Shown here piece by piece: positions 1 to 27,177 of a DNA stretch of 43,087 nt. How positions within the stretch are numbered: the stretch's first letter is position 1; every line of letters starts with the position of its first letter. The notes beneath the pieces were generated by a model. It had not been told where the DNA came from. It was given only the letters and a program-made list of their open reading frames with translations, and ran no database searches. Source of the DNA: a bacterium (GTDB lineage Bacteria; Patescibacteriota; Minisyncoccia; Minisyncoccales; UBA10102); contig JAUSJT010000004.1 in assembly GCA_030647485.1 (NCBI GenBank), positions 1 through 43,087 of the forward strand, written 5' to 3'. The position numbers and the translations under genes are program-made.

Positions 1-3000
1 GGCAACGTCGGCATCAACGATACAACTCCTGATGGACTTTTGGATCTTGATAGCTCCGCAACTGCTACCAATGTACTTGGCATTACAAATACAGCAATAT
101 TCACAGGAACAGGAACCTCATCGGTAGCACAAATTACCGCAAACTCTCTCACCGCTGGTACTGGTATTACTCTTTCTATTACCGGCCTCACCACAGGCAC
201 AGGACTTTCCATTGCAGGAGGAGGAGCGAACCTCGCGGCAGGAGGCGAACTCATAGACCTTGTCATGGGGCTGGCAACCGCAGGCAACGGCATGAACATC
301 ACTTCAACAGGAGCATACGCTGGAACAGGACTTCTTCTCCTGACCGCAGACTCTGCAACCGGAGGCACCATACAGGCAATCACTGCCGACGCCCTTACCA
401 CGGGAACAGGCCTTGCGGTTTCTTCAGATTCCAATGAAGCGCTGGCAGCAGGCAGACTTGCGAGCTTTGTCCATTCCGCAGTTGGAACAGCCGTGGTTGC
501 AAAGACCGGCAGCTTATTCTCTCTCACCTCATCAATTACAGAATCCGGCACTAGCACCCAAGACTTTGACGCGGCGTCCTTCGTACGCACCAGCATTCAC
601 GACACAGCCGGAACCCTTACTGCCACAGGTTCAGTGTTGTACATTGAGAACGTAGCAACCCAGACTGCCGCAACCCTTGCAGACACCACGAAAGGCATTG
701 AGGTAGTAATGGATGCAGACGGCACAGGAGACGGCATTGAGGTTACGCACAACGCTCTTACCGGAGTTGCCCTTGACGTCATATCCCTTGCAAACACAGG
801 TTCGGGGCAGGTGATCACAGCCAACTCGCTGACCACAGGCACCGGCCTAAGAGTTATTTCCTCCGGAGTCATTGCAACCACAGGAGAGCTTGTGGAGTTC
901 ACTGCTTCAGGAGCAACCACGACAACAGGAGCTGTGCGTCTTACAACCGCTGTTCTCTCAACCGGAACAGCCTTGCTCGTGCAGACCAACACTGCAGCCT
1001 TTACCACAGGAGGCAAGGCAATAGAGATTGACCTTGTTGCCGCAGTAGCAGGAAACGGTCTTACCATTGCAACCACCGGAGTATATACCGGCACTGGCCT
1101 TCTCACCATCACAGCCAACGGCCTTACCACAGGCACAGGTCTTGCCATCAGTTCAACCGCTACAGGGCTCACCACAGGCAGTCTGCTCTCGGTCACCACT
1201 TCAACCACTGGAGCTGTTGCCACGAATGGCGTTGTGTCCATATCCTCTTCTGGAGCCTTTACCTCAACCTCTAATGCAGGTCTCTTGAATGTTGCAGCCA
1301 CAGGGCTTGTGGGCACAGGCACCATGGTAAACATCAATCCCTCAAACGTCTCTCAACTTACCAACACCGCCCTGAACATATCCCAAACAGGCGTGACAAC
1401 CGGATACACCGGCACCTTGGTTTCCATCAGCTCAACCTCAACAACAGGAGCTGCCACGTTCTTTGCAATCACTGACAACGTTGCCACTGTTGCCACTGGC
1501 CAAGCAATTTCCATGACAGGCCTCACCACAGGCACAGGACTTTCCATTGCAGGAGGAGGAGCGAACCTCGCGGCAGGAGGCGAACTCATAGACCTTGTCA
1601 TGGGAGCTGCTACTGCAGGGAATGGACTTACGGTGAGCACTACAGGCGCCTACACAGGAACAGGATTGGTGGTTCTCACTGCGAACAGTTTGACCACAGG
1701 CATTGCGTTGAGCATACCTCACACTACCTCGGTCATTGCCAGCGGAGGATCTCTTGCCAGAATATCCTCCACTTCCATAGATACCAGCACAACCACAGGA
1801 GTGCTGCTTGACCTCTCTTCCACCGCATCTCTTGCCGGAACCCAGTTCTTACAAACATACTCTGGTTTAACTACAGGCATTGGACAGTCCATAGTAACTA
1901 ACGCCTTGACCACAGGAACAGCGTTAAATATCAGTTCCACATCTACTGCAGGAGGAGCAAGCGGAGTTTCAAAACTTCTCAACCTTGCAAGGTCAGGGGC
2001 TAATGCCCAGCTTGCGCACACCGCATACGGTCTGTACTCCGCGGTTACCAATACCAACGCAACTTCTGGCACCAATGTCGCGGGATACTTTTCCGCATCT
2101 GGTGCAACCACTGCAAACTACGCCATTCAGGTGGCGCAGAACAACTGGATTGGCGGCATAGACAGCGCAACAACCGGAGTAGTGCGAATGTTTAAGATAA
2201 ACGCTTCAGATCAAATTCAAGTGGGAGCTGCCTTAAGCATGGACGGGGGCATTACCCTTCCAACAGACGCGGGAGCCGTAACGTTGGTTGACCTGCCCCT
2301 TAGTCTTACCTCGTCAACTGCGAATTCCTATACCTTCAAAATAGGTTCCGACAATATCTTAACAATATATGGGGAGTCTGGCGCAACAGCAGGCCTTTTG
2401 TATAACGGTAGGGTGGGCATTGGCGACATTACTCCAGATGCTATCTTTGACATAGACGGAACAGCAATATCCGGTGGCATTGGAACAGTTCTCGTCACCC
2501 CAGGAGCCCATACCGCAGTCGTTGCAGAAGTGATTGATATATCTGTTGCTGCGCATACAAATACCATCACAGGAGCTATTACAACTCAAAGATTCACTAA
2601 CTTTGCACAGCCAGTCATCTCTGCTGCTTCTGGCCTTACCGTCACTACCGCAGCCAATATTGCTATCGCAGGAACTCCCAACCCAACAGGAGCGGGGCCA
2701 GCTACTATTACTAATGCATTTGGCTTAATGCTTGGAACCGCCCTTGCAACTGTTCCTGCGTATAGCGCTTCTAACGCAACTACTATTACCAGTGCCGCCA
2801 TGCTCTATGTTGCTGGTGCTCCTGTAACAGGAGGTAATGTTACAGTAACCAATGGCTATGCTCTCTGGGTAGACGGGGGAAAGACGCGATTAGATGGAGG
2901 AGGCACATCTGCCCAAGCTAGCGCAGCAGGCGGAGTATTAGAAATACAAGCGTCCACCGTTAATGGAAACAATGCCAGTAGCACTATTGCCATTGGAGCG

Positions 3001-4731
3001 TCAGTGTCTATAGGCGTGACAACCTATACGAACAATACCGCTACCCTAACAATGACTAATGCCGCAAGTATGTATATTGCAGGAATACCTGTGGCAAGTA
3101 CAAATGTAGCGTTCACAAATCCTGCCTACGCCCTCTGGGTGGATGCGGGAACGAGCAGGTTTGACGGCGCAGTAACCTATGGCTCCCAAGCTACATTCAC
3201 CGATTCGGATGCCACTCCTGATGTTTCTGCGGGTTCCCATTTTATAACCAACACCACGGCAGTAACCATTACCGACTTTGACGCGGGGGCTGGAACCTTG
3301 CAGGCAGGCCATATTATATATGTAGAGAGTAATGGAACCATTACCTATGATGTTGACGGGGGTCTTCTTGAAGCTGGGGCAGTTGACTTGGTGACTGCAG
3401 CAGGAGATCTTACTACTTGGATATACGATGGAGTTGATGACTGGATCCTTGTTTCCTGGATGAAGAATTCTGCCACCCAAACCGGCGCTGACGTTGCAGA
3501 ACTTTTCCCAAGCCAAGAGCAGCTTGAACCAGGAGATGTGGTGTCTGCTGACACCGGATATCCAGTGAATGTGAAAAAGAGCGTGGCAAAGTATGAGAGA
3601 CAGCTTCTCGGTGTTGTGTCCACCCAGCCCCATATTACGCTTGGTCAAGGCACCGAAGGCACCACCTATCCTATAGCTCTTGCAGGACGCGTGCCAGTGA
3701 AGGTTTCGCTTGAGAACGGCCCGATTGTCATTGGCGATCATCTTACTTCTTCTACTATTCCTGGAGTTGCAATGAAAGCTACGTCTACGGGGAACACCAT
3801 AGGTATTGCCTTGGGAGCATACGACGGCACACAGCTAGAAGCAAAGATTATGGTGTTTATTCAGCTTGGCTGGCAAGGAGGGAGCGCCTTGAGCGTGTAT
3901 CAAAACGCAGACGGCACTCTTTCTTATGAGGCTCTTACGGTTAAGGCAGGCTTTGAAGAGCTCGGTTTTACAATAACAGGGCAGGGAGAGCTTCAGGTTA
4001 ACAAACTTACGACACAAGAACTTTGCGTGGGAGCAACCTGTATCACCGAAACCACCCTCTTAAACTTAATGGGATTAAGTTCTCCACAGCCTGGCACCAC
4101 ATTGGCGGTAGAAGAACAGAATAGCCAGCTTGTAAACACAACTCCTCTCCAGACGCAGTTAGCCGAGCTGGGCTTGGTAGTAAACACCAACGGGGCATTG
4201 GAGGTAAACATCTTAAAAGCCCAGCGGGTGGAGATTACCAGTCCTTATGGCCTTACTATATATGATGTAGTGACGGGTCAGCCCCAGTGCGTGTTCTCGC
4301 AAGAAGGCCAGCTAAGAACTATTGCAGGCAAATGCGACGGCATTGTAGCCAACGTACAGCCTAGTGGAAGTGAGACTTCACCCGGAGGGGGCAGTCTCAC
4401 TTCGGCCCCAATAGAGGAGCCAGTAGCCCCAGCTCCAAGCCCAGTTAGCAGTGAAGTCGAACCTCAATCAGCAGAGGGCGGTTCGACTTCGACACTAATA
4501 GAGCCAGAACCAGCTCCCGCGCCAGTGCCAAGCCCTGAACCAATCCTAGAGCCTGCCTCAGTCTTAGAGCCAACTCTTGAGCCCACGCCTACGCCAAGTC
4601 CTGAACCAGCTCCAACCCCAGAGTCTGTTCTAGAACCTGCCCCAGCCCCTGCCCCAGAACCAGCTCCTGCCCCAGCTCCTGAACCAACCCCCGAACCTAT
4701 TCCATCAGAAACCTCAGCAGTCATTCAGTAA
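1..4731 (+). CDS. Giant Thr/Gly/Ala-rich surface/fibre protein (5'-partial), with a peptidase_G2/intramolecular-chaperone-like autocleavage domain and a Pro-Glu-rich tail
   Basis: Frame is open from base 1 (GNVGINDTTPDGLLD...), so the true start is upstream. Repeated LTTGTGL motifs; GADVAELF...LGVVSTQP...PIALAGRVPVKV...GDHLTSS block; (EPAP/EPTP)n tail. Confidence 0.75.
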   Translation, partial: GNVGINDTTPDGLLDLDSSATATNVLGITNTAIFTGTGTSSVAQITANSLTAGTGITLSITGLTTGTGLSIAGGGANLAAGGELIDLVMGLATAGNGMNITSTGAYAGTGLLLLTADSATGGTIQAITADALTTGTGLAVSSDSNEALAAGRLASFVHSAVGTAVVAKTGSLFSLTSSITESGTSTQDFDAASFVRTSIHDTAGTLTATGSVLYIENVATQTAATLADTTKGIEVVMDADGTGDGIEVTHNALTGVALDVISLANTGSGQVITANSLTTGTGLRVISSGVIATTGELVEFTASGATTTTGAVRLTTAVLSTGTALLVQTNTAAFTTGGKAIEIDLVAAVAGNGLTIATTGVYTGTGLLTITANGLTTGTGLAISSTATGLTTGSLLSVTTSTTGAVATNGVVSISSSGAFTSTSNAGLLNVAATGLVGTGTMVNINPSNVSQLTNTALNISQTGVTTGYTGTLVSISSTSTTGAATFFAITDNVATVATGQAISMTGLTTGTGLSIAGGGANLAAGGELIDLVMGAATAGNGLTVSTTGAYTGTGLVVLTANSLTTGIALSIPHTTSVIASGGSLARISSTSIDTSTTTGVLLDLSSTASLAGTQFLQTYSGLTTGIGQSIVTNALTTGTALNISSTSTAGGASGVSKLLNLARSGANAQLAHTAYGLYSAVTNTNATSGTNVAGYFSASGATTANYAIQVAQNNWIGGIDSATTGVVRMFKINASDQIQVGAALSMDGGITLPTDAGAVTLVDLPLSLTSSTANSYTFKIGSDNILTIYGESGATAGLLYNGRVGIGDITPDAIFDIDGTAISGGIGTVLVTPGAHTAVVAEVIDISVAAHTNTITGAITTQRFTNFAQPVISAASGLTVTTAANIAIAGTPNPTGAGPATITNAFGLMLGTALATVPAYSASNATTITSAAMLYVAGAPVTGGNVTVTNGYALWVDGGKTRLDGGGTSAQASAAGGVLEIQASTVNGNNASSTIAIGASVSIGVTTYTNNTATLTMTNAASMYIAGIPVASTNVAFTNPAYALWVDAGTSRFDGAVTYGSQATFTDSDATPDVSAGSHFITNTTAVTITDFDAGAGTLQAGHIIYVESNGTITYDVDGGLLEAGAVDLVTAAGDLTTWIYDGVDDWILVSWMKNSATQTGADVAELFPSQEQLEPGDVVSADTGYPVNVKKSVAKYERQLLGVVSTQPHITLGQGTEGTTYPIALAGRVPVKVSLENGPIVIGDHLTSSTIPGVAMKATSTGNTIGIALGAYDGTQLEAKIMVFIQLGWQGGSALSVYQNADGTLSYEALTVKAGFEELGFTITGQGELQVNKLTTQELCVGATCITETTLLNLMGLSSPQPGTTLAVEEQNSQLVNTTPLQTQLAELGLVVNTNGALEVNILKAQRVEITSPYGLTIYDVVTGQPQCVFSQEGQLRTIAGKCDGIVANVQPSGSETSPGGGSLTSAPIEEPVAPAPSPVSSEVEPQSAEGGSTSTLIEPEPAPAPVPSPEPILEPASVLEPTLEPTPTPSPEPAPTPESVLEPAPAPAPEPAPAPAPEPTPEPIPSETSAVIQ
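184..1604 (+). repeat. Identical 86-nt direct repeat (184-269 and 1519-1604) inside the giant gene
   Basis: ggcctcaccacaggcacaggactttcc...gaccttgtcatggg occurs twice with no mismatch. Confidence 0.9.
4367..4490. repeat. Two REP-like inverted doublets inside the giant gene 3' end
   Basis: GAAGTGAGACT (4367-4377) / AGTCTCACTTC (4393-4403) and GAAGTCGAACC (4453-4463) / GGTTCGACTTC (4480-4490) are both perfect 11-bp inverted repeats. Confidence 0.75.
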
Positions 4732-4737
4732 TATGCT

Positions 4738-4854
4738 ATGAGAAAACTTTTTCTTCGTTCACCCATCATAATTATTCTTCTTGGGGTATCCCTTTTGCTC
4801 GGTGGTGGGCTTGGCTATGCCTTCTTTTTCGGGGTGCTCCCCGTTAGAAATTAA
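4738..4854 (+). pseudogene. 38-codon ORF, probable truncated N-terminal anchor of a LamG-protein paralogue
   Basis: MRKLFLRSPIIIILLGVSLLLGGGLGYAFFFGVLPVRN resembles the N-terminus of 5149..6558 (MKKRLFTIPVIAIIIFVLIGAGTAFSMIFFGG). Similarity ends where the inverted repeat begins. Confidence 0.5.
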
Positions 4855-5139
4855 TATATGATGTGGTACACTTATGTATTGAAAAGTAAAAAGGATAATC
4901 AATGGTATACAGGATATACCGAAGATTTGCGAAAAAGATTTTCAGATCACAACAAGGGCCTTGTCTATGCAACAAGAAAACGCAGACCTTTTACCCTCAT
5001 CTATTACGAAGCATGTATAGATGAACGCGATGCAAAAATGCGAGAGCAATATTTAAAATCAGGACAAGGTAAAAGGTATATTAAGAACAGGTTAAAATTC
5101 TTTTTCGCAAATCAATAATTTCTAACGGGGCTACCCCGA
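4829..5139. mobile_element. Putative GIY-YIG cassette bounded by terminal inverted repeats
   Basis: TCGGGGTGCTCCCCGTTAGAAATTA (4829-4853) and TAATTTCTAACGGGGCTACCCCGA (5116-5139), with a perfect 15-bp core. Confidence 0.6.
4858..5118 (+). CDS. Stand-alone GIY-YIG nuclease family protein
   Basis: YTYVL...WYTGYTEDLRKRFSDHNKG...YYE...REQYLKSGQG; 86 aa. Confidence 0.9.
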   Translation: MMWYTYVLKSKKDNQWYTGYTEDLRKRFSDHNKGLVYATRKRRPFTLIYYEACIDERDAKMREQYLKSGQGKRYIKNRLKFFFANQ

Positions 5140-5148
5140 TAAAAATCT

Positions 5149-6558
5149 ATGAAGAAGAGATTGTTTACTATTCCAGTTATTGCCATCATTATATTCGTCC
5201 TCATTGGAGCAGGTACTGCCTTTTCAATGATTTTTTTCGGGGGCACCAGCGTGAATCTCCAAAAAGGATTGGTAGGCTGGTGGAAAATGGATGGCAATGC
5301 CAAAGACGCAACCCCCAATAGTAATCATGGAACATTAGTTAACAATACAGTTCTAACAACAGACCGCAAAGGACAGACGGACAAAGCGTACAGCTTCCCC
5401 CAATCGGGGACTCTTGATTCTATAGGTCTGGGGACAGGCTCAATTCTAAACCCAGGAACAAGTGATTTCACTTATGCTTTTTGGGCTAACGGAACATCCT
5501 CTGGTTGGGGGGAAATTTTGAATAAAGCTAATGGTGATTATTCTGTCTTAACAGCTGGCTTTAATATCACTTTCAGGTCTGGCCCGCCTGCCTATATTGT
5601 ATATACGCATTCCGCCTATGACAATGGGGTGACGTGGTCAAATGTTACAAATATGACTGATGGTACTTGGCATCACTGGGCTATTGTCGGCAATAGAGCG
5701 GCAGGGACCGTTATATTATACAAAGATGGCGTGAGTCAAGGAGCGAATAGTCCTGGCGGCAGTTTTACCACGGCAAATATCACGACTTCTAGCCCAATGA
5801 ATTTTGGCAACCAAGTTCCATTCTGGACAAGCAGAGTATACACAGGTTCCATGGATGATGTTCGTATCTACAACCGCGCCCTGTCTGCAACTGAAATCAC
5901 CGCATTGTATGAATCCTACAACCCCGGCATCGTGATATCAGACCTCCAAAAAGGCCTTGTTGGAAACTGGAAAATGGACGGCAACGCCAAGGACTCAACC
6001 CCCAACAGCAACCACGGCACAGTAACAGGCGCAACTCTCACCACCGACCGCAAGGGCCAAACCAACAAGGCGTATAGTTTTAACGGAACGACTAATTATG
6101 TGAGTGTTCCTACGTCAAGTTCATTGCAAATTACAGGATCCGTTTCCATAAGCGTATGGGTTAATGCAGCTACCCAGGCAGGAGATGTCCGCATCGTGAA
6201 TAAAGAGAGCGCCGCGGATACTGATGGATACGCTCTTGGTTTGGCTTCAAACAATATTGCGGGGAAAATTGGCGATGGAACGAATTGTTATCTCAACTCG
6301 ACCAGCGCCGTTTCTACGGGTGCCTGGAATCATCTTGTTATGACGGGAGATGGCGTTACGATGAAAATGTATATCAATGGAGTACAAATTTCGCAAACAA
6401 AAAGCTGCGGTAGTGTAGCGTCAAATACTTCAATTCTCGCGATAGGCGCCCGTTACAGTGCTACCCAGTTTTTTACTGGAAGCATAGACGACGTTCGCAT
6501 CTACAACCGCGCGCTGTCTGCGACGGAAGTTTTGGCATTGTACGAAAGCTATCGCTAA
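5149..6558 (+). CDS. Membrane-anchored protein with two LamG/concanavalin-like domains
   Basis: N-terminal TM segment; two GLVGxWKMDGNAKD...WxH...GS(M/I)DDVRIYNRALS units. Confidence 0.9.
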   Translation: MKKRLFTIPVIAIIIFVLIGAGTAFSMIFFGGTSVNLQKGLVGWWKMDGNAKDATPNSNHGTLVNNTVLTTDRKGQTDKAYSFPQSGTLDSIGLGTGSILNPGTSDFTYAFWANGTSSGWGEILNKANGDYSVLTAGFNITFRSGPPAYIVYTHSAYDNGVTWSNVTNMTDGTWHHWAIVGNRAAGTVILYKDGVSQGANSPGGSFTTANITTSSPMNFGNQVPFWTSRVYTGSMDDVRIYNRALSATEITALYESYNPGIVISDLQKGLVGNWKMDGNAKDSTPNSNHGTVTGATLTTDRKGQTNKAYSFNGTTNYVSVPTSSSLQITGSVSISVWVNAATQAGDVRIVNKESAADTDGYALGLASNNIAGKIGDGTNCYLNSTSAVSTGAWNHLVMTGDGVTMKMYINGVQISQTKSCGSVASNTSILAIGARYSATQFFTGSIDDVRIYNRALSATEVLALYESYR

Positions 6559-6580
6559 AGCGCATGAATCCTCCGTTTCC

Positions 6581-6698
6581 AACTAAATTCCATTTAGTTA
6601 TCCACAGCTAAACGTCCACAGCTAAACGAGATTTAAGCACTAGCAAAACATTTGCACATAAACTTATAATAGAATGGCACTACTAAATCTCATTTAAG
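6581..6698. repeat. Hairpin/DnaA-box-like repeat copy with a 14-nt tandem duplication, plus a solo hairpin
   Basis: AACTAAAT-TCC-ATTTAGTT (6581-6599); TTATCCACA (6598-6606); TCCACAGCTAAACG x2 (6601-6628); CTAAAT-CTC-ATTTA (6683-6696). Confidence 0.75.
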
Positions 6699-6709
6699 AA
6701 TAACAAGAA

Positions 6710-6796
6710 ATGATAAGGAAAAAGTTTGAGCAAGGTAATATTTATCACGTGTATAATAGAGGCGTTGAAAAACGCGACGTTTTTCTTCTGCTTTAG
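6710..6796 (+). pseudogene. Truncated 5' fragment of a RAYT-like transposase
   Basis: MIRKKFEQGNIYHVYNRGVEKRDVFLLL* versus MKRVRFEKGKIYHVYNRGVEKRSIFL of 6967..7686. Confidence 0.8.
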
Positions 6797-6957
6797 AATC
6801 CTGCCTAAGTCAATCCTGCCTAAGCCTCGCTCAATCCTGCCTAAGCCTCGCTTAGTTATCCCCACCTAAGCGAGGCTTAGGTGGTAGCCAGGACCCTTTC
6901 TTTAAGATTATAATTATGAATATAAGAGAATCCTAAGCCTCGCTTAGGCAAGCTTAG
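6797..6957. repeat. REP-like hairpin cluster CCTAAGC-CTC/GAG-GCTTAGG
   Basis: Three AATCCTGCCTAAG units of increasing length; doublet 6840-6881 with TTATCCCCA linker; further copy at 6932-6948. Confidence 0.9.
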
Positions 6958-6966
6958 ACGATTGTT

Positions 6967-7686
6967 ATGAAACGGGTTCGATTTGAAAAAGGGAAAATTT
7001 ATCACGTATATAATCGAGGCGTTGAGAAACGGTCCATTTTTCTCTCCGAGGGCGATCGCTGGAGATTTCTTCAAGGTCTGTATTTATTTAATGATGAAAC
7101 TGGATCTGCCAATCTTTTGTATCGTCTTGAACAAGAAAAAGGCAAGATGCACTTTGGTATTTTGCGCGAGTATATGGCCCGGCACGGCGCTAAACGGAAA
7201 CCATTGGTTCGCATTATGGCAGATTGCTTGAAATCAAATCACTTTCATATGGCAATTGAAGAAACAACGGAAAACGGCATTTCAAGATTTATGCAGAAAT
7301 TGGGCACTGGTTATACAAAGTACTTTAATACTAAGTACGAACGAGTAGGTCCTTTATTCCAGGGCCCATTCAAGGCAGTAGAGGTGAAGAGCGATGAACA
7401 GCTTATGTATCTTCTTGCGTACATAAACGCAATCAATCCAGGACAGGAACTGGAACCGGAACTGAAGTCTGCCGCGCAAAACCCCGAAGAAATATTGAGT
7501 TTTATAGAGGATCATTTTCTGTGGAGCACGCACTTGGAATATCTTGGGAAGCGCGATTCTATTATCGTTGACAAGGGTATTGCAGGTGAGCTTTTTTCTA
7601 GCCCTGTACGATACAGGAAGTTCATAGCAGATATTATACGAGGTAAACAAAGATCGGGATTGCAGGATAATCTCCTGTTAGATTAA
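6967..7686 (+). CDS. HUH/Y1 tyrosine transposase (RAYT/IS200-like)
   Basis: YHVYNRGVEKR, HUH motif NHFH, YFNTKYERVGPLFQGPFK, YINAINP; flanked by hairpins. Confidence 0.85.
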   Translation: MKRVRFEKGKIYHVYNRGVEKRSIFLSEGDRWRFLQGLYLFNDETGSANLLYRLEQEKGKMHFGILREYMARHGAKRKPLVRIMADCLKSNHFHMAIEETTENGISRFMQKLGTGYTKYFNTKYERVGPLFQGPFKAVEVKSDEQLMYLLAYINAINPGQELEPELKSAAQNPEEILSFIEDHFLWSTHLEYLGKRDSIIVDKGIAGELFSSPVRYRKFIADIIRGKQRSGLQDNLLLD

Positions 7687-7688
7687 TT

Positions 7689-7712
7689 TGTTGATAACTT
7701 AACCAGGCTAAG
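7689..7712. repeat. Half copy of the hairpin/DnaA-box-like repeat
   Basis: TGTTGATAA-CTTAAC-CAG-GCTAAG immediately after the transposase stop codon. Confidence 0.6.
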
Positions 7713-7715
7713 GAT

Positions 7716-8501
7716 ATGAGAGAGATGTTGGAAAAAGTGAGGAATGGGGTGCTTGGAACAAACGGAGTACTGGGCAGAGTAGGCAGGGGTATTTTAGACG
7801 TGGTGTTTCCGGTACGATGTGTTGGGTGTGGAGAAGAAGGACACTATATATGTAGGAGATGTGAAGGTTTTACAAGTGAAGCTGCTTTGATTTGCCCTTT
7901 GTGCCAGCAATCTAGCTTGACTGGAGAACGCCACGAGAATTGCAGGTCACTGTATGGGTTAGAGGGTTTGGCAAGCGTGTGGGAATACGAGGGGGTGGTG
8001 AAAAGTCTTCTTCATAATATAAAGTACAATGGCATGACCCATGCGATTGCAGAAACAGTTCAGAGCGCATATATAAGCATGGCAGGCGATACAATGCGAT
8101 TTAAAACATTTCTCTCTTATTTGTTTTCCAAAGACACCTGCATAACATATGTGCCAATGTTTAAGAGAAAAGAAAAGTTCCGCGGTTTTAACCAGGCTAC
8201 TGTATTTGCAAGAGAAATGGGAAAAGTAGTTAAGAGGGAGGCGGTTTCTTTACTCGAAAAAATAGTAGATACAAAACCGCAGGTAGATCTTACAAAAGAA
8301 GAACGGTTGCAAAACCTGAAAGGGGCCTTTCAAGTAAAATTCGAAATCCCTGCCTCGCCGGCAGGCAGGCGAATCCCCAAAAACGTTGTACTTGTTGATG
8401 ACGTCTGGACTACCGGTGCTACTATGAAAGAGTGTTGCAAAGTTTTGAAAAAGTCGGGAATCCAGCAGGTATGGGGTTTTACGGTGGCGAGAACACCTTG
8501 A
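7716..8501 (+). CDS. comF: ComF family protein (zinc ribbon + phosphoribosyltransferase)
   Basis: FPVRCVGC...CRRC...CPLC; RGFNQA; VVLVDDVWTTGATM. Confidence 0.9.
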   Translation: MREMLEKVRNGVLGTNGVLGRVGRGILDVVFPVRCVGCGEEGHYICRRCEGFTSEAALICPLCQQSSLTGERHENCRSLYGLEGLASVWEYEGVVKSLLHNIKYNGMTHAIAETVQSAYISMAGDTMRFKTFLSYLFSKDTCITYVPMFKRKEKFRGFNQATVFAREMGKVVKREAVSLLEKIVDTKPQVDLTKEERLQNLKGAFQVKFEIPASPAGRRIPKNVVLVDDVWTTGATMKECCKVLKKSGIQQVWGFTVARTP

Positions 8502-8510
8502 TAGAGAACT

Positions 8511-8580
8511 AAAACCGAGCACCCAATTGAGTGCTCGGCACTGGCGATCTCGCACAGTACGAGATTCCGGCTTGCCATCC
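8511..8580 (-). ncRNA. Candidate ~70-nt small RNA
   Basis: Lies between a near-consensus promoter and the terminator hairpin CCGAGCAC/GTGCTCGG + TTTT; internal hairpin ATCTCG/CGAGAT. Confidence 0.5.
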
Positions 8581-8586
8581 ATTATT

Positions 8587-8615
8587 ATTCTACCAACCCC
8601 GGGCATAGCTGTCAA
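8587..8615 (-). promoter_or_regulatory. Sigma70-type promoter
   Basis: TTGACA-17 nt-TAGAAT on the minus strand. Confidence 0.65.
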
Positions 8616-8724
8616 ATTATACCCCGGGGCATTTTATACGCTCACCACGGAGGGCTCGCTAAAATGCCCGTTGAAGACAAGCAGTTGTCTTCAACCCCCG
8701 CGGGTCCACTGCCAGGTAAACTAT

Positions 8725-9627
8725 ATGACTACAATTATACAAAGAGAAAATAAAAAGTATCCAAAGCTGTTGGCTCAGATTGGAGACGCGCCAAAGCAGC
8801 TGTATTATAAAGGTACTTGGGATGCTACGATTTTTGAACATTGTCTTGCGGTGGTAGGTACGAGAAAAATGACAACGTATGGCAAGCGCATGACAGAGCA
8901 GCTGGTAGGGGAAATTGCCAGCGCAGGAATCACCATTGTTTCTGGATTCATGTATGGTATTGATGCTGCCGCTCACAAAGCCGCGCTACGGGCTGGCGGT
9001 AGAACCATTGCGGTAATGCCATGTGGTATTGACATGATTCATCCTTCAGACCAAGCAGACCTGTACAAAGAAATTGTAGACATGGGAGGGCTTGTGCTTT
9101 CTGAATACGAAGGGAATTTTCAGCCTTTACTCTGGACATATCCAAAGCGAAACCGCATTGTGGCAGGCCTTTCTCAAGCAACGCTTGTGGTAGAGGCGGG
9201 AGAAAAATCTGGTTCTCTGATTACTGCACATTTTGCCAAGAAATACAGAAGAAAACTTTTTGTGGTGCCAGGCCCACTTACCAGCAGCGTATCAGTCGGA
9301 ATTATGCAGCTTATCAAAGAAGGGGCAGAAGTGGTTGGCGGCGCAAAAGATGTGCTGGATTTTTATCGCTCGAATCTTGGATTTTCTTTGCGCTTTATCC
9401 CGCCAGCTGGCGGGAGCCCTACGCGTCTGCAGAAAACCCAAGATCCTCGCTCTCTTTCTACTCTCGAAGAAAAAGTTCTAGAGGAGTTGCGAGCGGAGCC
9501 AAAAGAAGTTGACGAATTGGCTCGTTTGTTTGGCGCTTCAGCTGCTCACATTGGAAGCGTTCTCTCTTTTCTTGAATTATCTGGTGCGATAACAAATGAA
9601 AATGGAAAGTACGGTATCATTTCCTAA
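8725..9627 (+). CDS. dprA: DNA-processing protein DprA
   Basis: LAVVGTR, IVSGFMYGIDAAAH, RNRIVAGLS, VVEAGEKSGSLITA; C-terminal winged helix. Start reassigned to ATG 8725. Confidence 0.93.
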   Translation: MTTIIQRENKKYPKLLAQIGDAPKQLYYKGTWDATIFEHCLAVVGTRKMTTYGKRMTEQLVGEIASAGITIVSGFMYGIDAAAHKAALRAGGRTIAVMPCGIDMIHPSDQADLYKEIVDMGGLVLSEYEGNFQPLLWTYPKRNRIVAGLSQATLVVEAGEKSGSLITAHFAKKYRRKLFVVPGPLTSSVSVGIMQLIKEGAEVVGGAKDVLDFYRSNLGFSLRFIPPAGGSPTRLQKTQDPRSLSTLEEKVLEELRAEPKEVDELARLFGASAAHIGSVLSFLELSGAITNENGKYGIIS

Positions 9628-11159
9628 TGCTTATTAAAGTTTCATCTGCGGCAAATTCCGGTTTGGAAGCAATAGGAGTAGATGTTGAAGTAAGCGTTTC
9701 AAACAGGGGACTGCCCGGTTTTGACATTGTTGGCTTGGCGGGCAAAGCGGTAGAAGAAAGCAAGGAGCGCGTACGAGCTGCGATTGGCAACTCGCGCATG
9801 GAATTTCCACAGCGAAAAATCACGGTAAATCTTGCGCCGGCAGATATTCTTAAGGAGGGCTCTTTTTACGATTTGCCCATTGCCGTTGGCATTATGGCTT
9901 CTGTTCTTCAATACGAAGTTCCTAAAGACAGTTTATTTTTTGGAGAGCTTTCGCTCGACGGCTCTTTGCGCCACACCAGGGGAGCGGTGCTTATGGCGTT
10001 TTTTGCAAAAGAGCAGGGGCTGAAAAACATTTTTGTACCGTTTCCATCGGCAAATGAAGCGGCAATTATCAAGGGCGTTCATGTATATGCAGTAGAAAAT
10101 CTTTCACAATTGGCTGGGTTTTTATTAGGTAAAGTTGTATTGCAGCCCATCGTGTATGAGGAGCACGTTGAACACATTGAAGATATAGAGTTTGATATGG
10201 CAGAGGTGCTTGGCCAGGAGTATGCCAAACGAGCCATAGAAATTGCAGCTGCCGGAGGGCATAATATTTTAATGATAGGAAGTCCTGGTTCTGGAAAAAC
10301 TATGCTGGCGCGGGCATTGCCAGGCATTCTGCCGCACCTTAACGAAGAGGAGTCGTTAGAGGTGACAAAATTATATTCTGTTGCAGGGTCTATGCCTCCG
10401 CAAGGTTCGCTTATTACTACGCGTCCGTTTCGTTCTCCGCATCACACTATTTCTCAAATTGGGTTAATCGGCGGAGGTAGTAAGCCCCAGCCAGGCGAAG
10501 TGAGCTTGGCGCACAGGGGGGTACTGTTTTTAGATGAATTTAATGAGTTCCCTCGATCAGTGTTAGAATCTTTGCGCCAGCCCGTAGAAGACGGTGTGCT
10601 CACCATATCAAGAGCCAGAGAGCGGGTAACGTATCCATGCCGCTTTATGCTTGTGGCGTCATCTAACCCTTGCCCTTGCGGTTATTTAGGTCATTCAAAA
10701 AAACCGTGCGTGTGTTCTCCACGAGAAATAAGAAAATACAGAAAACGGGCATCCGGCCCTATTCTTGACCGCATTGATCTTCATGTGGATGTTCCAGAAG
10801 TTGATATTGAGAAATTTGCAGAAAATCAGAGAGCTTCTTCATTGTCCGAGCCGTCGTCTGTTATTCGAGAAAGAATAGCAGCGGTTCGCCGCAAGCAGAC
10901 AATGCGCCTTGAGGGGGAGCACATTTTTACCAACGGGGAGATGAAAAACTCTCACATCAAAAAATACGCGAAACTTTCTAGGGAGGCGGAGTTGATTCTG
11001 ACGAGAGCGGGGTTGCAGTATCAGTTGTCTGCCCGGTCGTACATGAAGTTAATAAAGATTTCACGCACCATAGCAGATTTGGCAGACGCAGAGCATATTG
11101 AGAGGGATCATGCGCTAGAAGCGCTACAGTATCGTCCAAAAACATACGAACTTGACTAA
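9627..11159 (+). CDS. comM: YifB/ComM Mg-chelatase-like AAA+ helicase
   Basis: ITVNLAPAD, GSPGSGKT, PFRSPHH, GEVSLAHRGVLFLDE, NPCPCG, LDRID. Confidence 0.95.
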   Translation: MLIKVSSAANSGLEAIGVDVEVSVSNRGLPGFDIVGLAGKAVEESKERVRAAIGNSRMEFPQRKITVNLAPADILKEGSFYDLPIAVGIMASVLQYEVPKDSLFFGELSLDGSLRHTRGAVLMAFFAKEQGLKNIFVPFPSANEAAIIKGVHVYAVENLSQLAGFLLGKVVLQPIVYEEHVEHIEDIEFDMAEVLGQEYAKRAIEIAAAGGHNILMIGSPGSGKTMLARALPGILPHLNEEESLEVTKLYSVAGSMPPQGSLITTRPFRSPHHTISQIGLIGGGSKPQPGEVSLAHRGVLFLDEFNEFPRSVLESLRQPVEDGVLTISRARERVTYPCRFMLVASSNPCPCGYLGHSKKPCVCSPREIRKYRKRASGPILDRIDLHVDVPEVDIEKFAENQRASSLSEPSSVIRERIAAVRRKQTMRLEGEHIFTNGEMKNSHIKKYAKLSREAELILTRAGLQYQLSARSYMKLIKISRTIADLADAEHIERDHALEALQYRPKTYELD

Positions 11160-11201
11160 AACTAAACCGAGTTTAGTTGTGGAGAACTAAACTCGGTTTA
11201 A
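11160..11201. repeat. Hairpin-linker-hairpin repeat
   Basis: AACTAAAC-CGA-GTTTAGT TGTGGAGAA CTAAAC-TCG-GTTTA. Confidence 0.85.
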
Positions 11202-11208
11202 GCAACAT

Positions 11209-11592
11209 ATGGCGGAACATAATACAATAGGGGAAGAAGGGGAAGAGACTGCTAAGAGGTATTTGGAGAGCAAGGGATATAAAATTATTGCAAGAAATTG
11301 GAAGACTAAACGAGCGGAAATTGACATTATTGCTTGTCTTAACCAGGGGTTTTTGGGGCTAGGCAAGAGCCTGCTTGTCTTTGTAGAGGTGCGGACAAAA
11401 CGTCATGAACAGTACGGCACGCCGGAAGAAACCATTGATTATGAAAAACGCATGAGACTGCGGCGAAACGCAACAGCATATATTCATCGAACAAAATACC
11501 GCGGTCCATACCGTATAGACGCCATTTGTTTGATTATTGGGAGCAACGGACTTCAACGTATAGATCACTACGAAAGTATTGTCGAAACTTAG
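11209..11592 (+). CDS. yraN: YraN family (UPF0102) nuclease
   Basis: GEETAKRYLESKGYKIIARNW...EIDII...LVFVEVRT...RIDAI. Confidence 0.92.
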   Translation: MAEHNTIGEEGEETAKRYLESKGYKIIARNWKTKRAEIDIIACLNQGFLGLGKSLLVFVEVRTKRHEQYGTPEETIDYEKRMRLRRNATAYIHRTKYRGPYRIDAICLIIGSNGLQRIDHYESIVET

Positions 11593-11627
11593 TCTCACTA
11601 AGGTGTGAATAACTTAACCTGGTTAAG
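11588..11627. repeat. Hairpin-linker-hairpin repeat overlapping the yraN stop codon
   Basis: CTTAGT-CTC-ACTAAG G TGTGAATAA CTTAAC-CTG-GTTAAG. Confidence 0.85.
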
Positions 11628-11655
11628 GATATAATGGTATACTGATACATTATAT

Positions 11656-13902
11656 ATGCGCAAGATTCTGAATTTTATTACGAGTATAAGCATTTGGGGA
11701 GTGGTGTTTCTGGTTCCTCTAGCTTTTTCCCCATGGACCTTTGAGGCGTTTGAGTTCAACAAGCTGTACCTTCTTTTCTTTCTGGTTCTTATAGGAACCA
11801 TTGCGTGGTTGGCAAAGATGGTGTTCGTGGACCGGGAGATACGACTCAAGAGAACTCCCTTGGATATTCCAATCATTCTTTTTGCAACCCTGGCGAATAT
11901 CTCGTCATTCTTCTCTTCTGACCGCTGGTCTTCTATGTTTGGGTATTATGGGAGGTTCTCTGACAGCGCAATGGCCTTGGGAAGCTTTGTGGGCCTTTAC
12001 TTCTTGATTATCAATACCGTAGAAAAGCCCCAGCGCCTTCTTAACTGGTTTTTGGGAGCTGTGGCTATTGTTATTGCTACAAGCTATCTCTCTTTGTTCC
12101 AGGTATGGCAGCAGTTTTCCGTCTCTGTGTGGCCGATGATAAAGCAGGTAGGATTTAACCCTGTTTCAGCAAGTCTGGAAGGATTCTCGGTTTTTCTTGC
12201 AGCCATTGCGGCTTTTTTGGCTTTTCAGAGCGTAAAACCAGAGGTACGGGTTTTTTCTAGGATAGGGTATGGAGTGCTTGCCTTGGGGGGCTTGGGGATT
12301 TTGCTTTTGGCAGATATCTCAAAAGCGTGGGTTGTGCTATTGCTTGGTCTCTTGTTCGCGCTTGTAGCCGGCTTCATGGTTCACTTTCGTGCTAGCAAAA
12401 AAGGAGGGATGTGGAATCTATGGTTTCCTTTCTCGTTATTGCTGTTCGCAGTCGTCTTCCTCTTTTCTCCTGCTTTTGTAAGCACGAGTATCCGCATGCC
12501 AGCAGTTCCTCAAGAACCAATGCTTTCCCAGGAATTATCCTGGAGTATTGCATGGAACACGGCGACAGAGGACATAAAGCATATACTGGTAGGATCTGGT
12601 CCTGGAACCTTTGCCATTGATTTTTCAAAATATCGGCCAGCAGAATTCAATACGGGAGGCCTCTGGCAGACTCGTTTTGACCGATCGCAAAGCCACTGGA
12701 GCGAAATACTCGCTACCACAGGATTTCTCGGCATTCTTTCATATATTCTTTTAATAGGATTTTTCTTGCTGGCTTCTTGGTTGCTGCTTTCTAAAAAGAA
12801 TATGTGGCCGTTCTTGGTAGTACTTCTTTCTCTTCTTGTTTCCCAGTTTGTCTATTATCAGACCTTGAGTCTTGGTCTTGCGTTTTGGCTATTTTTGGCA
12901 TTGGGCGTGTTGTCGTGGGAACGTCCAGTTCAAGAATTCGTGTTTTCTTTGCGCAAGTTCCCGGAGTTTGAGATTGGGGCAAAAGTGCTGTTTTTGGCTG
13001 TTGCTTTGGTGGCAGGAGGAATGTCGTACAATGCCGCGAGATTTTACCTTGCCGATACGCATTATCTCCTAGCGCAGAATACAGGCCGTTCAGGCTCAAA
13101 AGATCCTTCAGGCTCGATGAGAGGAGTAAATATTGCGAGGAGTATTGACCATGGGTTAGAGGCGATACGCCTGAATCCGTATCAGGCAGAGTATAAAATG
13201 TTTGCTAGCCGTTCGTATCTTTCTCGTGCATTGGCGGAATTGCAAAAACCAGAGAGTGAACGCGACCAAGCTGGAATTTCAAGAGACGTGCAGCTTGCCA
13301 TTGCTCATGCCACCAGAGCAACCCAGATGAGCCCAAAAAGGGTGGCAACATGGGAGACTCAGGGTTCTGTGTATCGGGATATCAAGCTTGCAGCCGGAGC
13401 CTTAGAGTGGGGGATCAGTTCTTTTGAAACAGCCATTGTTTTGGAACCCACCAACCCTATACTGCATACTGAATTAGGCAAGCTTTATGCAGCAAACGAA
13501 CAGAACGACAAGGCAAAGGAGCAGTTTGAGAAAGCAGCAGCGCTAAAAGCCGATTACGTGGAGGCGCAGCTGCAGCTTGCCCTTATCTTTGAGAAAGAGA
13601 AGGATGTGCCTGGCGCTATTGCAAAGATAAAAGCTATTGCGCTACAATATCCTTTAGACGCAGAGTCTTTGTTCCAGTTGGGGCGGCTGCAATACAACAA
13701 CGGGCAGGTTCAAGAAGCGGTTTCGCAGTTTGAGCAGGTTCTCTTGTTGGCTCCCGCGAATTCTAATGCTAGATTCGCCTTGGGCGTTGCCTTAGAAAAG
13801 CAGGGGAAGATTGAGCAGGCAGTACAAGAGTTTAAAAGGGTTTTAGAGCTCAACCCCGGGAACGAAGCAGTCCTGCAGAAGTTGCAGGGGCTGGAGAAAT
13901 AG
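11656..13902 (+). CDS. Polytopic membrane protein, O-antigen-ligase-like, with C-terminal TPRs
   Basis: Many TM segments; GSGPGTF...HWSEILATTGFLG motif; TPR repeats at the C-terminus. Confidence 0.7.
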   Translation: MRKILNFITSISIWGVVFLVPLAFSPWTFEAFEFNKLYLLFFLVLIGTIAWLAKMVFVDREIRLKRTPLDIPIILFATLANISSFFSSDRWSSMFGYYGRFSDSAMALGSFVGLYFLIINTVEKPQRLLNWFLGAVAIVIATSYLSLFQVWQQFSVSVWPMIKQVGFNPVSASLEGFSVFLAAIAAFLAFQSVKPEVRVFSRIGYGVLALGGLGILLLADISKAWVVLLLGLLFALVAGFMVHFRASKKGGMWNLWFPFSLLLFAVVFLFSPAFVSTSIRMPAVPQEPMLSQELSWSIAWNTATEDIKHILVGSGPGTFAIDFSKYRPAEFNTGGLWQTRFDRSQSHWSEILATTGFLGILSYILLIGFFLLASWLLLSKKNMWPFLVVLLSLLVSQFVYYQTLSLGLAFWLFLALGVLSWERPVQEFVFSLRKFPEFEIGAKVLFLAVALVAGGMSYNAARFYLADTHYLLAQNTGRSGSKDPSGSMRGVNIARSIDHGLEAIRLNPYQAEYKMFASRSYLSRALAELQKPESERDQAGISRDVQLAIAHATRATQMSPKRVATWETQGSVYRDIKLAAGALEWGISSFETAIVLEPTNPILHTELGKLYAANEQNDKAKEQFEKAAALKADYVEAQLQLALIFEKEKDVPGAIAKIKAIALQYPLDAESLFQLGRLQYNNGQVQEAVSQFEQVLLLAPANSNARFALGVALEKQGKIEQAVQEFKRVLELNPGNEAVLQKLQGLEK

Positions 13903-26369: not shown

Positions 26370-26398
26370 GGCTGGGCGAAACCGGGTTTCGCCCAGCC
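26370..26398. repeat. Left REP-like hairpin of transposase 2
   Basis: GGCTGGGCGAAAC-CGG-GTTTCGCCCAGCC. Confidence 0.9.
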
Positions 26399-26415: not shown

Positions 26416-27135
26416 ATGAGAAGAAAAATTCCATTCGTCGTAGGGAAAATCTACCATATTTATAATCGAGGTGTTGCTAAGTGCCAAATTTGCAATGGAG
26501 AAGCGGACTGCTGGAGATTTATGCAAGGATTATGTTTATTTAATGATACTAAGAGTACAAGCAGTATACTCTGGCATCTTGAGCGAGATCGAAGTAGACT
26601 CACTATGAATGTGTTGAAGCAATATCTTGTTGATCACGGGAAAAGTAGAGAGCCGCTCGTGCGTATTATGGCGTATTGCCTTATGGGTAATCACTATCAT
26701 CTTATATCTGAAGAAATCCAGGAGGGCGGAATTACAAAATTTATGCACAAGCTCGGCGTTGGATATGCAAATTATTTCAATAACAAACATAAGCGAGTGG
26801 GAAGTTTGTTCCAGGGCAGGTTTAAAAACGTGTTAGTTGAAACCGACCAGCAGCTTCTTTACTTGCTGGTCTATATTAACGTGTTGAATCCTGCTGAGTT
26901 TGTTGCGCCAAATTGGAAAGAACAAGGAATACCAAATATAGGAAAAGTGTTACAATACGCAGAGAGTTACATCTGGGGTACGCATTTGGAGTATTTAGGA
27001 AAGCGGAAGTCACTGATTATTGATAAAGGAATTCTTGATGAGATGCTTCCCACGCCAGAAGCGTATCTTGAATTAGTATGTGGTGTGTTGAGGGGAAAGA
27101 AATACGAAGCAGTAGCTGAACTTATGCTCGAGTAA
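26416..27135 (+). CDS. Second HUH/Y1 tyrosine transposase (RAYT-like)
   Basis: YHIYNRG, NHYH, YFNNKHKRVGSLFQGRFK, YINVLNP; 239 aa from ATG 26416. Confidence 0.85.
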   Translation: MRRKIPFVVGKIYHIYNRGVAKCQICNGEADCWRFMQGLCLFNDTKSTSSILWHLERDRSRLTMNVLKQYLVDHGKSREPLVRIMAYCLMGNHYHLISEEIQEGGITKFMHKLGVGYANYFNNKHKRVGSLFQGRFKNVLVETDQQLLYLLVYINVLNPAEFVAPNWKEQGIPNIGKVLQYAESYIWGTHLEYLGKRKSLIIDKGILDEMLPTPEAYLELVCGVLRGKKYEAVAELMLE

Positions 27136-27146
27136 GGTTTAGGCTT

Positions 27147-27177
27147 GGGCTGGGCGAAACCCGGTTTCGCCCAGCCC
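27147..27177. repeat. Right REP-like hairpin of transposase 2 (inverted orientation)
   Basis: GGGCTGGGCGAAAC-CCG-GTTTCGCCCAGCCC. Confidence 0.9.

Follow-up and report, generated by a model that had tools for sequence, protein, structure and literature searches.

A 292-bp GIY-YIG nuclease locus with terminal inverted repeats as a candidate member of a very small mobile element family in Patescibacteria

Small GIY-YIG nucleases encoded next to repeats are represented by the Ssn enzymes of family cd10448, which, judging from the accessible parts of the source, form the closest published system to the locus analysed here (Chenal et al. 2025, Nat Commun, PMC11893778). Ssn proteins are described there as 94-amino-acid single-domain GIY-YIG enzymes that cut single-stranded DNA (ssDNA) a few bases from a hairpin repeat, and the layout of the gene and its flanking repeats is called 'identical' to that of an insertion sequence (IS), with domestication suggested. 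In this study, a stretch of 43,087 nucleotides from a bacterium of the order Minisyncoccales (positions 1-43087 of contig C2, JAUSJT010000004.1; hereafter the window) was analysed with respect to an 86-amino-acid GIY-YIG nuclease gene that lies between inverted repeats at positions 4839-5130. The genome containing the window (G000) comprises 629,943 bp and is 98.7% complete. A sequence-only reading of the window had proposed this locus as a minimal, nuclease-driven mobile element.

Insertion sequences and MITEs (miniature inverted-repeat transposable elements), for example the Correia/NEMIS elements of Neisseria, possess terminal inverted repeats (TIRs), produce a short target duplication, occur mostly as gene-less copies and are transcribed together with host genes. 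Typical insertion sequences are several-fold larger than the coding element of about 280-290 bp considered here. Elements of the IS200/IS605 and REP/RAYT types use HUH Y1 enzymes, insert without target duplication and carry sub-terminal hairpins, not long TIRs. Penelope-like retroelements contain a GIY-YIG endonuclease fused to a reverse transcriptase and give variable short target duplications. Slx1 cuts branched DNA, has a RING/zinc domain and works with Slx4, and we know of no function or mobile context for the UPF0213 proteins. In the candidate phyla radiation (CPR), open reading frames (ORFs) of the GIY-YIG type have been reported in non-intron insertions of rRNA genes; the accessible part of that report mentions no inverted repeats, duplications or gene-less copies (J Bacteriol 2024, PMC11270868). 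A GIY-YIG protein also appears, in the accessible part of another study, among genes transferred from Patescibacteria (PMC12455944). A full-text literature search found no description of a GIY-YIG-only transposon and no occurrence of the phrase 'GIY-YIG transposase'.

Our analysis suggests that positions 4839-5130 hold an intact copy, autonomous in appearance, of a family of cut-and-paste-like elements that are very small and occur in CPR/Patescibacteria, a reading to which we assign a probability of roughly 0.6. Sequence comparison points to a family made up of TIRs of 13-20 nt beginning with (C/T/G)CCCG and of one gene for a single-domain GIY-YIG nuclease of 80-90 residues. The comparison shows insertion at many unrelated sites, usually with duplication of four target bases, most often TGAA or TATG. 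The family is strongly enriched on start codons and is found also at tRNA-Pro 5' ends and at TTGAC.. sites resembling -35 boxes. The nuclease gene is co-oriented with the downstream host gene and ends in, or just past, the right repeat a few bases from the rebuilt host start, and the spread of gene-less copies with the same ends is seen in genomes that hold the nuclease. The features of the copy in the window are listed here.

4839-5130, plus strand: whole element, TIRs plus GIY-YIG gene, 292 bp (sequence, repeat finder)
4839-4853, plus strand: left terminal inverted repeat, CCCCGTTAGAAATTA (repeat finder, 100% complementary)
5116-5130, plus strand: right terminal inverted repeat, TAATTTCTAACGGGG, which holds the nuclease stop TAA at 5116-5118
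4858-5118, plus strand: 86-amino-acid single-domain GIY-YIG nuclease gene (Pfam PF01541, E 3.4e-16)
4830-4843, plus strand: left-end hairpin CGGGG-TGCT-CCCCG, the outer half of which (4830-4838) is flank
5126-5138, plus strand: right-end hairpin CGGGG-CTA-CCCCG, the outer half of which (5131-5138) is flank
4924-4942, plus strand: inner inverted repeat arm 1, in the nuclease gene, coding for DLRKRF (19 nt, 95%)
5095-5113, plus strand: inner inverted repeat arm 2, coding for KFFFAN, which pairs with 4924-4942 in the single-strand fold

The left repeat CCCCGTTAGAAATTA and its exact reverse complement stand 262 nt apart (15 of 15 nt match), and its first 14 nt are common to the ends of gene-less copies in the same genome. 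Four nucleotides separate the left repeat from the nuclease ATG, the right repeat opens with the TAA stop, and the frame at 4858-5118 is the sole ORF filling the gap between the repeats. Sequence and repeat finder agree with the earlier proposal that an inverted repeat brackets the nuclease gene with its stop inside the right repeat, and the CGGGG-N3/4-CCCCG hairpins noticed at both ends are present. Their arms are CGGGG at 4830-4834 with CCCCG at 4839-4843, and CGGGG at 5126-5130 with CCCCG at 5134-5138. Hairpins of this type number five in the 630-kb genome, two of them at the ends of this element, where both adjoin the conserved TTAGAAATTA. In most relatives the outer halves of the end hairpins belong to the flank and not to the element. 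The proposed size of about 310 bp applies only when these outer halves are included; the element proper measures 292 bp between the repeat ends. The observation that the element contains no transposase also stands, since the GIY-YIG gene is the sole ORF and no recognised DDE, DEDD, HUH, serine or tyrosine class was found in it.

Three perfect inverted repeats of at least 15 nt (loop no shorter than 20 nt, span no longer than 450 nt) occur in the real window, against none in each of 200 resamples generated with a first-order Markov model. Folding of the single strand at 4815-5155 gave -55.2 kcal/mol (z = -8.8) and one long interrupted stem, composed of the flanks, the terminal repeats and the inner repeat 4924-4942 / 5095-5113. 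The pairing of DLRKRF codons with KFFFAN codons is also visible in one homologous locus (L056). Analysis of positions 4600-5400 revealed no terminator-like site and no promoter-like excess, and Rfam gave only sub-threshold chance matches for the region.

Analysis of the encoded protein revealed a match to Pfam PF01541 at 59.7 bits (cut-off 22.6), with the domain spanning residues 2-72. Alignment of 56 sequences showed Y6, Y17, R27, H31, T39, R62, L66 and K67 to be invariant and G19, E51 and E63 to be conserved in at least 90%. The AlphaFold2 model has a mean pLDDT of 96.5 and consists of three strands and helices in one compact fold. The best fold matches found with Foldseek are UPF0213 BH0048 (1zg2) and the Slx1 nuclease domain, with a TM-score (query) of 0.64-0.67, followed by HIGLE and I-TevI. 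Taken over Slx1 (7cq2, 6sei, 4xm5) and UPF0213 (1zg2, 1ywl) structures, the TM-score (query) ranges from 0.54 to 0.67, and UPF0213 proteins are also the nearest solved proteins by sequence (1zg2, E 1.5e-7). No NCBIfam or PADLOC family fits the nuclease, the best NCBIfam match being a group I intron endonuclease model at 16.5 against a cut-off of 56 bits. Neither Pfam nor the AlphaFold2 model revealed an extra DNA-binding domain in the 86 amino acids. Based on the conserved catalytic-type residues, the confident model and the Slx1/UPF0213-like fold, the nuclease looks functional.

A motif search of the genome revealed that the first 12-14 nt of the repeat recur in inward-facing pairs 80-152 nt apart with no notable ORF inside, and the termini of the window copy bound at least seven gene-less copies. 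Seventeen pairs emerged from a scan for 13-nt arms of the form (C/T)CCC(C/G)... (at most two mismatches, separation of 40-450 nt), and the 4-nt flanks are identical in nine of them. Together with one element flanked by the 5-nt TCATA and one copy with an indel, missed by the scan and flanked by TGAA, the genome contains a total of 11 CCCCG-type elements with exact 4-5-nt duplications: TATG occurs at four, TGAA/TTCA at three, and TGGA, TTGA, TATA and TCATA at one each. Four gene-less copies of 152 nt show 89-94% mutual identity, and the 14 nt CCCCGTTAGAAATT are common to their ends and to those of the window copy. A second nuclease-bearing element, at C2:162891-163185, differs in its repeats, CCCCGTAACATTACATC; TATG is duplicated there, and the host ATG opens the nuclease ORF. 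The window copy is the only nuclease-bearing element of the genome whose ends match the CCCCGTTAGAA-type gene-less copies and is therefore likely to be their helper. Gene-less copies with other ends include C3:53132-53173 with CCCCCACACC.. (TATA duplication) and C4:151135-151286 with CCCCGCCCCAATTTTGC (TTGA before CA); neither is matched by a nuclease copy of the same genome, and nuclease-bearing elements matching those ends exist in relatives (G003/G039 and G030).

The duplicated sites were compared with start codons after in silico removal of the element and of one copy of the duplication, taking the first start codon of ORFs of at least 77 amino acids. Seven of the 11 duplicated sites lie on such a first start codon, against 2.85% of same-tetramer sites (472 of 16,557; P = 4.6e-9), and rpsQ is among the target genes. 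Two more sites are the ATG starts of 418- and 452-amino-acid ORFs, which failed the 'first start' rule. Where TGAA or TGGA is duplicated, the last G of the element and the following TG form a GTG start. In four of the nine start-codon copies, the ORF from the displaced host ATG crosses the element and terminates within the right repeat, 4-11 nt short of the rebuilt start, and in one start-codon copy it reads through in frame. The 152-nt gene-less copy at C1:21779-21930 carries an extra A in the right repeat that abolishes the TAA, and in-frame reading from the displaced ATG would add 51 residues to a 411-amino-acid membrane protein.

The S17 gene (rpsQ) is present in all 41 genomes searched, that is, the genome of the window and 40 relatives, and 28 of the 29 related loci fetched were examined. 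In the 25 loci with the L29 gene upstream, the distance from the rpmC stop to the rpsQ start is -20 to +102 nt and does not exceed 12 nt in 20 cases. Several relatives read TATGCC at the rpmC-rpsQ junction, and in the genome of the window a 152-nt element sits on that TATG. The comparison therefore points to an orthologous empty site in relatives for a sibling gene-less copy, not for the window copy.

Homologues of the nuclease (E of at most 1e-5) were found in 22 of the 41 genomes, that of the window among them, often several per genome; with two exceptions, the relatives in this set belong to other genera. Among 28 loci in these genomes, 11 have inverted repeats of at least 12 nt with CCCC/CCCG-type ends, three have weak repeats and 14 have none. 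The three closest proteins of this set (56-62% identity) belong to repeat-bearing loci, and these three loci share CCCGTTAGA. In one relative (G039), identical nuclease proteins are encoded at two different ATGAA sites. A wider set with one genome per species yielded 63 loci, nearly all assigned to CPR/Patescibacteria, of which 57 are near-full-length matches. Repeats of the form NCCCG...CGGGN are present in 45 of the 57 and enclose 275-347 bp, 282 bp being the commonest length (15 loci). A duplication of at least 4 nt was found at 30 of these 45 loci (TGAA at ten, TATG at five) and of 3 nt at a further five.

The insertion sites of the family are unrelated genes, such as rpsQ, a dnaA-like gene, tRNA-Pro and many more. 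Among the 45 repeat-bearing loci, a host start codon stands at the right junction in 21, and an opposite-strand start codon at the left junction in one (L063). The stop of the nuclease is the right-repeat TAA in 26 of the 45; for 19 of the 21 loci with a start codon, its distance from the host start is -4 to +11 nt. The nuclease ORF is fused to the displaced host ATG in nine loci, seven of them without a start of their own. In-frame stops with retained repeats occur in four of 59 nuclease copies (L045, L070, L086, L089), as expected for decaying mobile elements. The right flank begins with TTGAC, like a -35 box, in five loci.

The geometry of the left flank in the window, with CGGGS-N3-5 directly before the element, recurs in seven of the 45 loci, and five of the seven are insertions in the 5' end of tRNA-Pro (L037, L040, L041, L048 and L053, around 560-945). 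The first five bases of the tRNA equal the last five of the element (CGGGC or CGGGG), and the tRNA-Pro gene is therefore rebuilt. The four copies with G/C as the outermost base sit in tRNAs starting with CGGGC. The simplest reading of the window copy is an insertion 4 nt after the CGGGG motif, as at the tRNA-Pro genes, in which the right copy of the duplication has lost two bases; the duplication is either just CT or a decayed one.

The motif YCCCGTTAGAR occurs 14 times in the genome of the window, against four for the reversed control, and 32 and 28 times in two relatives (G030 and G004), against one or two for the control. In these relatives the motifs mostly form inward-facing pairs 36-120 nt apart, so that gene-less copies appear to have expanded there. 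In each of the seven genomes with six or more such motifs a nuclease homologue is present, and in the 19 genomes lacking a homologue the count never exceeds three; this association is suggestive only, because kin genomes are not independent. Overall, the idea of a mobile element is supported at the family level by shared termini, duplications, gene-less copies and an empty site. The flanks that the sequence-only reading sought around close homologues occur at 45 of the 57 CPR loci and 11 of the 28 related-genome loci, and the non-autonomous copies it suggested looking for exist with the same termini in the same genome. The empty sites it suggested were recovered in part, at the rpmC-rpsQ junction of relatives for a gene-less copy and not for the window copy.

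From these patterns we infer that the nuclease itself moves the element. It would recognise its own ends, possibly folded as a single strand or a cruciform in the manner of Slx1 or Ssn enzymes. The cruciform or hairpin, to be recognised in an Slx1-like or Ssn-like way, may have its base set by the GC-rich termini. Slx1 cuts branched DNA, and a cruciform or hairpin substrate would therefore suit. The nuclease would make 4-nt staggered cuts at the target as well as at the ends, the move would be finished by host repair or ligation, and expression of the nuclease would proceed via borrowed host translation signals. Given the strong single-strand fold, a single-strand, hairpin-based mechanism is plausible.

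The surroundings of the window copy include the following features.

4738-4854, plus strand: 38-codon hydrophobic upstream ORF, the stop of which (4852-4854) overlaps the inner end of the left repeat
5134-5242, plus strand: adjacent 109-nt segment bounded by CCCCGATAAAAAT and ATTTTTTTCGGGG (20 nt, 85%; one mismatch in 13)
5149-6558, plus strand: downstream host gene, 469 amino acids with two LamG-type domains (Pfam Laminin_G_3, E 1.5e-50)

The upstream ORF, for which no paralogue was found in the genome, leaves 3 nt between its stop and the nuclease ATG, a spacing that would allow translational coupling. The element ends 18 nt upstream of the LamG gene start, and the nuclease stop lies 31 nt before the ATG at 5149. 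The segment 5134-5242 contains the start codon and the membrane helix of the LamG gene, and its right end repeats TTTTTCGGGG, which precedes the element, in the same codon phase. The regions to the left and right of the element (4720-4838 and 5131-5246) align with a score above all 500 shuffles (z 3.5). The segment may be a second, gene-less element, or the two regions may represent an old long duplication of the head of the host gene. A mirror-image arrangement of flanks was found at the locus of the closest homologue (L036, 72% identity). There, a 99-nt segment at 486-584, bounded by CCCCGTTACAAGT and ACTTGTAACGGGG, supplies the final 24 codons of a LamG-like ORF that lies upstream, and is followed after 3 nt by the nuclease element and then by a diverged copy of the ORF tail. 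The repeated flanks in the window and in L036 may stem from 'patch' elements, from long duplications of old date or from co-conversion.

The flanks CGGGGTGCT and CTACCCCGA resemble the acceptor ends of the three tRNA-Pro genes of the genome and may be the acceptor-stem halves of a collapsed tRNA-Pro gene. No tRNA was predicted in positions 1-12000 of the window, and all three tRNA-Pro isoacceptors are present elsewhere in the genome. Positions 1-4731 hold an open frame of at least 1576 amino acids that runs off the start of the window; with its Thr/Gly/Ala repeats and Pro/Ala/Glu-rich tail, the product is probably a surface protein.

Several results weigh against an autonomous element moved by its nuclease. 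As the sequence-only reading had noticed, the window copy shows no clear target duplication: its flanks read TGCT on the left and CTAC on the right and have only CT in common. This copy does not sit on a start codon. No empty allele was found for it among the assembled contigs of the probable source sample, one of which covers 3817-5310 and includes the element, and none of their junctions bypasses it. For the LamG gene, the 40 relatives yielded no orthologue and a single partial match at 36% identity. At the family level, flanking repeats are absent or weak at 17 of the 28 related-genome loci and absent, by the criterion used, at 12 of the 57 loci of the wider set. Among the 45 repeat-bearing loci, ten show a duplication of less than 3 nt, and a start codon is the site in just 21. 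A looser start-codon test gave a background of 19%, because internal in-frame codons were counted. In the genome of the window, no nuclease copy is cognate to the gene-less copies of other end types (CCCCCACACC.., CCCCGCCCCAATTT.., TCCCGTACGAGAT..), and five Y1_Tnp (RAYT-like) genes are present, one of them (6967-7686, 239 amino acids) just 1.8 kb from the element. Finally, we know of no GIY-YIG enzyme that performs strand transfer or joining, and integration would therefore need a further partner or host repair.

Some of these results bear on the idea that the unit is moved in trans, by a Y1/RAYT-like or an unrecognised enzyme, with the GIY-YIG gene as cargo or selfish addition. The Y1_Tnp genes, one of them so close, the lack of a known joining activity in GIY-YIG enzymes and the gene-less end types lacking a cognate nuclease would all fit this idea. 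We nevertheless regard it as quite unlikely, since each of the five Y1 genes seems to have its own, different REP-like hairpin; the one at 6967-7686 is preceded by tandem CCTAAGCGAGGCTTAGG hairpins at 6819-6948. The duplications and long TIRs of the present family are also unlike the behaviour of HUH Y1 elements, the repeats enclose room for the nuclease gene only at all 45 loci, and the motif-rich genomes all hold the nuclease. Among other transposases, no match to DDE_Tnp_1, rve, DDE_3 or TnpB-type profiles was found in the 98.7%-complete genome, the search besides Y1 being limited to these four families, and the same profiles do match in control genomes. A second Y1_Tnp match in the window, at 26644-26877, lies between GGGCTGGGCGAAACC-type hairpins (26370-26398 and 27147-27177), which occur also at 39204-39245.

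The locus could instead be a domesticated, host-serving ssDNase of the Ssn type that is no longer mobile, its repeats being recognition sites used, for example, in restricting or modulating incoming ssDNA in natural transformation. This is an unlikely explanation, and mobility and a host role would be compatible with each other. In its favour, the accessible text on Ssn describes single-domain GIY-YIG proteins of about 94 amino acids, inverted hairpin-forming repeats on both sides (NTS/SRM), many solo repeats and a proposed domestication of an IS-like unit (PMC11893778). The positions Tyr6, Tyr17 and Glu63/64 are equivalent, and Y6, Y17 and E63 of the present nuclease parallel the dead mutants Y6A, Y17A and E64A given there; in both systems nuclease and repeat appear to co-vary, and the window copy, which lacks a clean duplication, forms a local hairpin at each end. 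Across the family as a whole, however, unrelated sites carry 4-nt duplications, single genomes hold several copies that are identical or nearly so, and the pseudogenised copies mentioned above occur. The published SRM motif was not matched at the flanks of the present nuclease gene; it gave three matches in the genome, against one to three in ten resamples, and none within 400 nt of the four small GIY-YIG genes of the genome. The accessible text of PMC11893778 contains none of the TIRs, 4-nt duplications, gene-less copies, start-codon and tRNA-Pro targeting or translational coupling that set the CPR elements apart, and 12 of its 14 supplements contain no Patescibacteria or CPR names. The other two small GIY-YIG genes, at C1:62927-63064 (L103) and C2:205330-205440 (L104), follow tRNA-Ser and tRNA-Trp genes and are preceded by runs of hairpins with 17-bp stems (NNACGTTNAAATTT-type), not by TIRs, a layout nearer to Ssn/NTS. 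A free-standing homing endonuclease that spreads between homologous loci by double-strand-break repair, with an incidental inverted repeat, is very improbable. GIY-YIG is a classical homing-endonuclease fold, and the diverged copies of the interrupted host-gene end that flank the element in the window and in L036 could reflect co-conversion, but the NCBIfam intron-endonuclease score is far below its cut-off and the one-domain protein lacks an I-TevI-type DNA-binding extension. The insertion sites are moreover unrelated, with short duplications and conserved ends, and gene-less repeat copies spread too. As for a chance match, or a regulatory hairpin or terminator around a housekeeping gene, its likelihood is negligible. 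When up to three mismatches were allowed, the repeat count did not exceed chance (two matches against a mean of 1.1) and is uninformative, but none of the 200 resampled windows held a perfect repeat in the range, the same ends surround homologues in other phyla-level CPR groups, and neither terminator, promoter excess nor Rfam family at threshold was found around the locus.

The mobile-element reading thus describes an IS/MITE-like element with an Ssn-like nuclease, which would become a new transposon class if the nuclease proves sufficient. Like insertion sequences and MITEs, the family shows TIRs, short target duplications, more gene-less derivatives than coding copies and co-transcription with host genes; unlike insertion sequences, its sole protein is an 86-amino-acid GIY-YIG nuclease and not a DDE, HUH, serine or tyrosine transposase, and its insertions rebuild start codons. 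It shares with Penelope-like elements a GIY-YIG nuclease serving a mobile element and differs in having no reverse transcriptase. It differs from REP/RAYT systems in that the family makes duplications and the Y1 genes of the genome carry other hairpins. With IS200/IS605 and REP/RAYT it has in common a small nuclease-type enzyme tied to hairpin repeats, a likeness drawn on the accessible discussion in PMC11893778.

The odds appear evenly balanced that prokaryotes have, in this family, a new class of DNA transposon that is possibly smaller than any other autonomous one (about 280-290 bp) and has a GIY-YIG nuclease of about 86 residues as transposase. Such a transposon would land on start codons, tRNA-Pro 5' ends and promoter boxes, rebuild them from its own end and the 4-nt duplication, and borrow host translation without killing the gene; related gene-less copies could carry a replacement for the displaced gene end (5134-5242; L036 486-584). 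If an 86-residue nuclease does move a 290-bp element, it would add a new enzyme class to the few known for transposases and push the lower size limit of autonomous mobile DNA further down. It would also explain the many small GIY-YIG genes and palindromic repeats in the tiny CPR genomes and suggest that the Ssn nucleases, with their repeats, descend from a mobile element. A sequence-specific nuclease of very small size, paired with its repeat, is in addition a possible molecular tool. The rebuilding of start codons and tRNA ends shows how a parasite may live inside the essential operons of a 630-kb genome.

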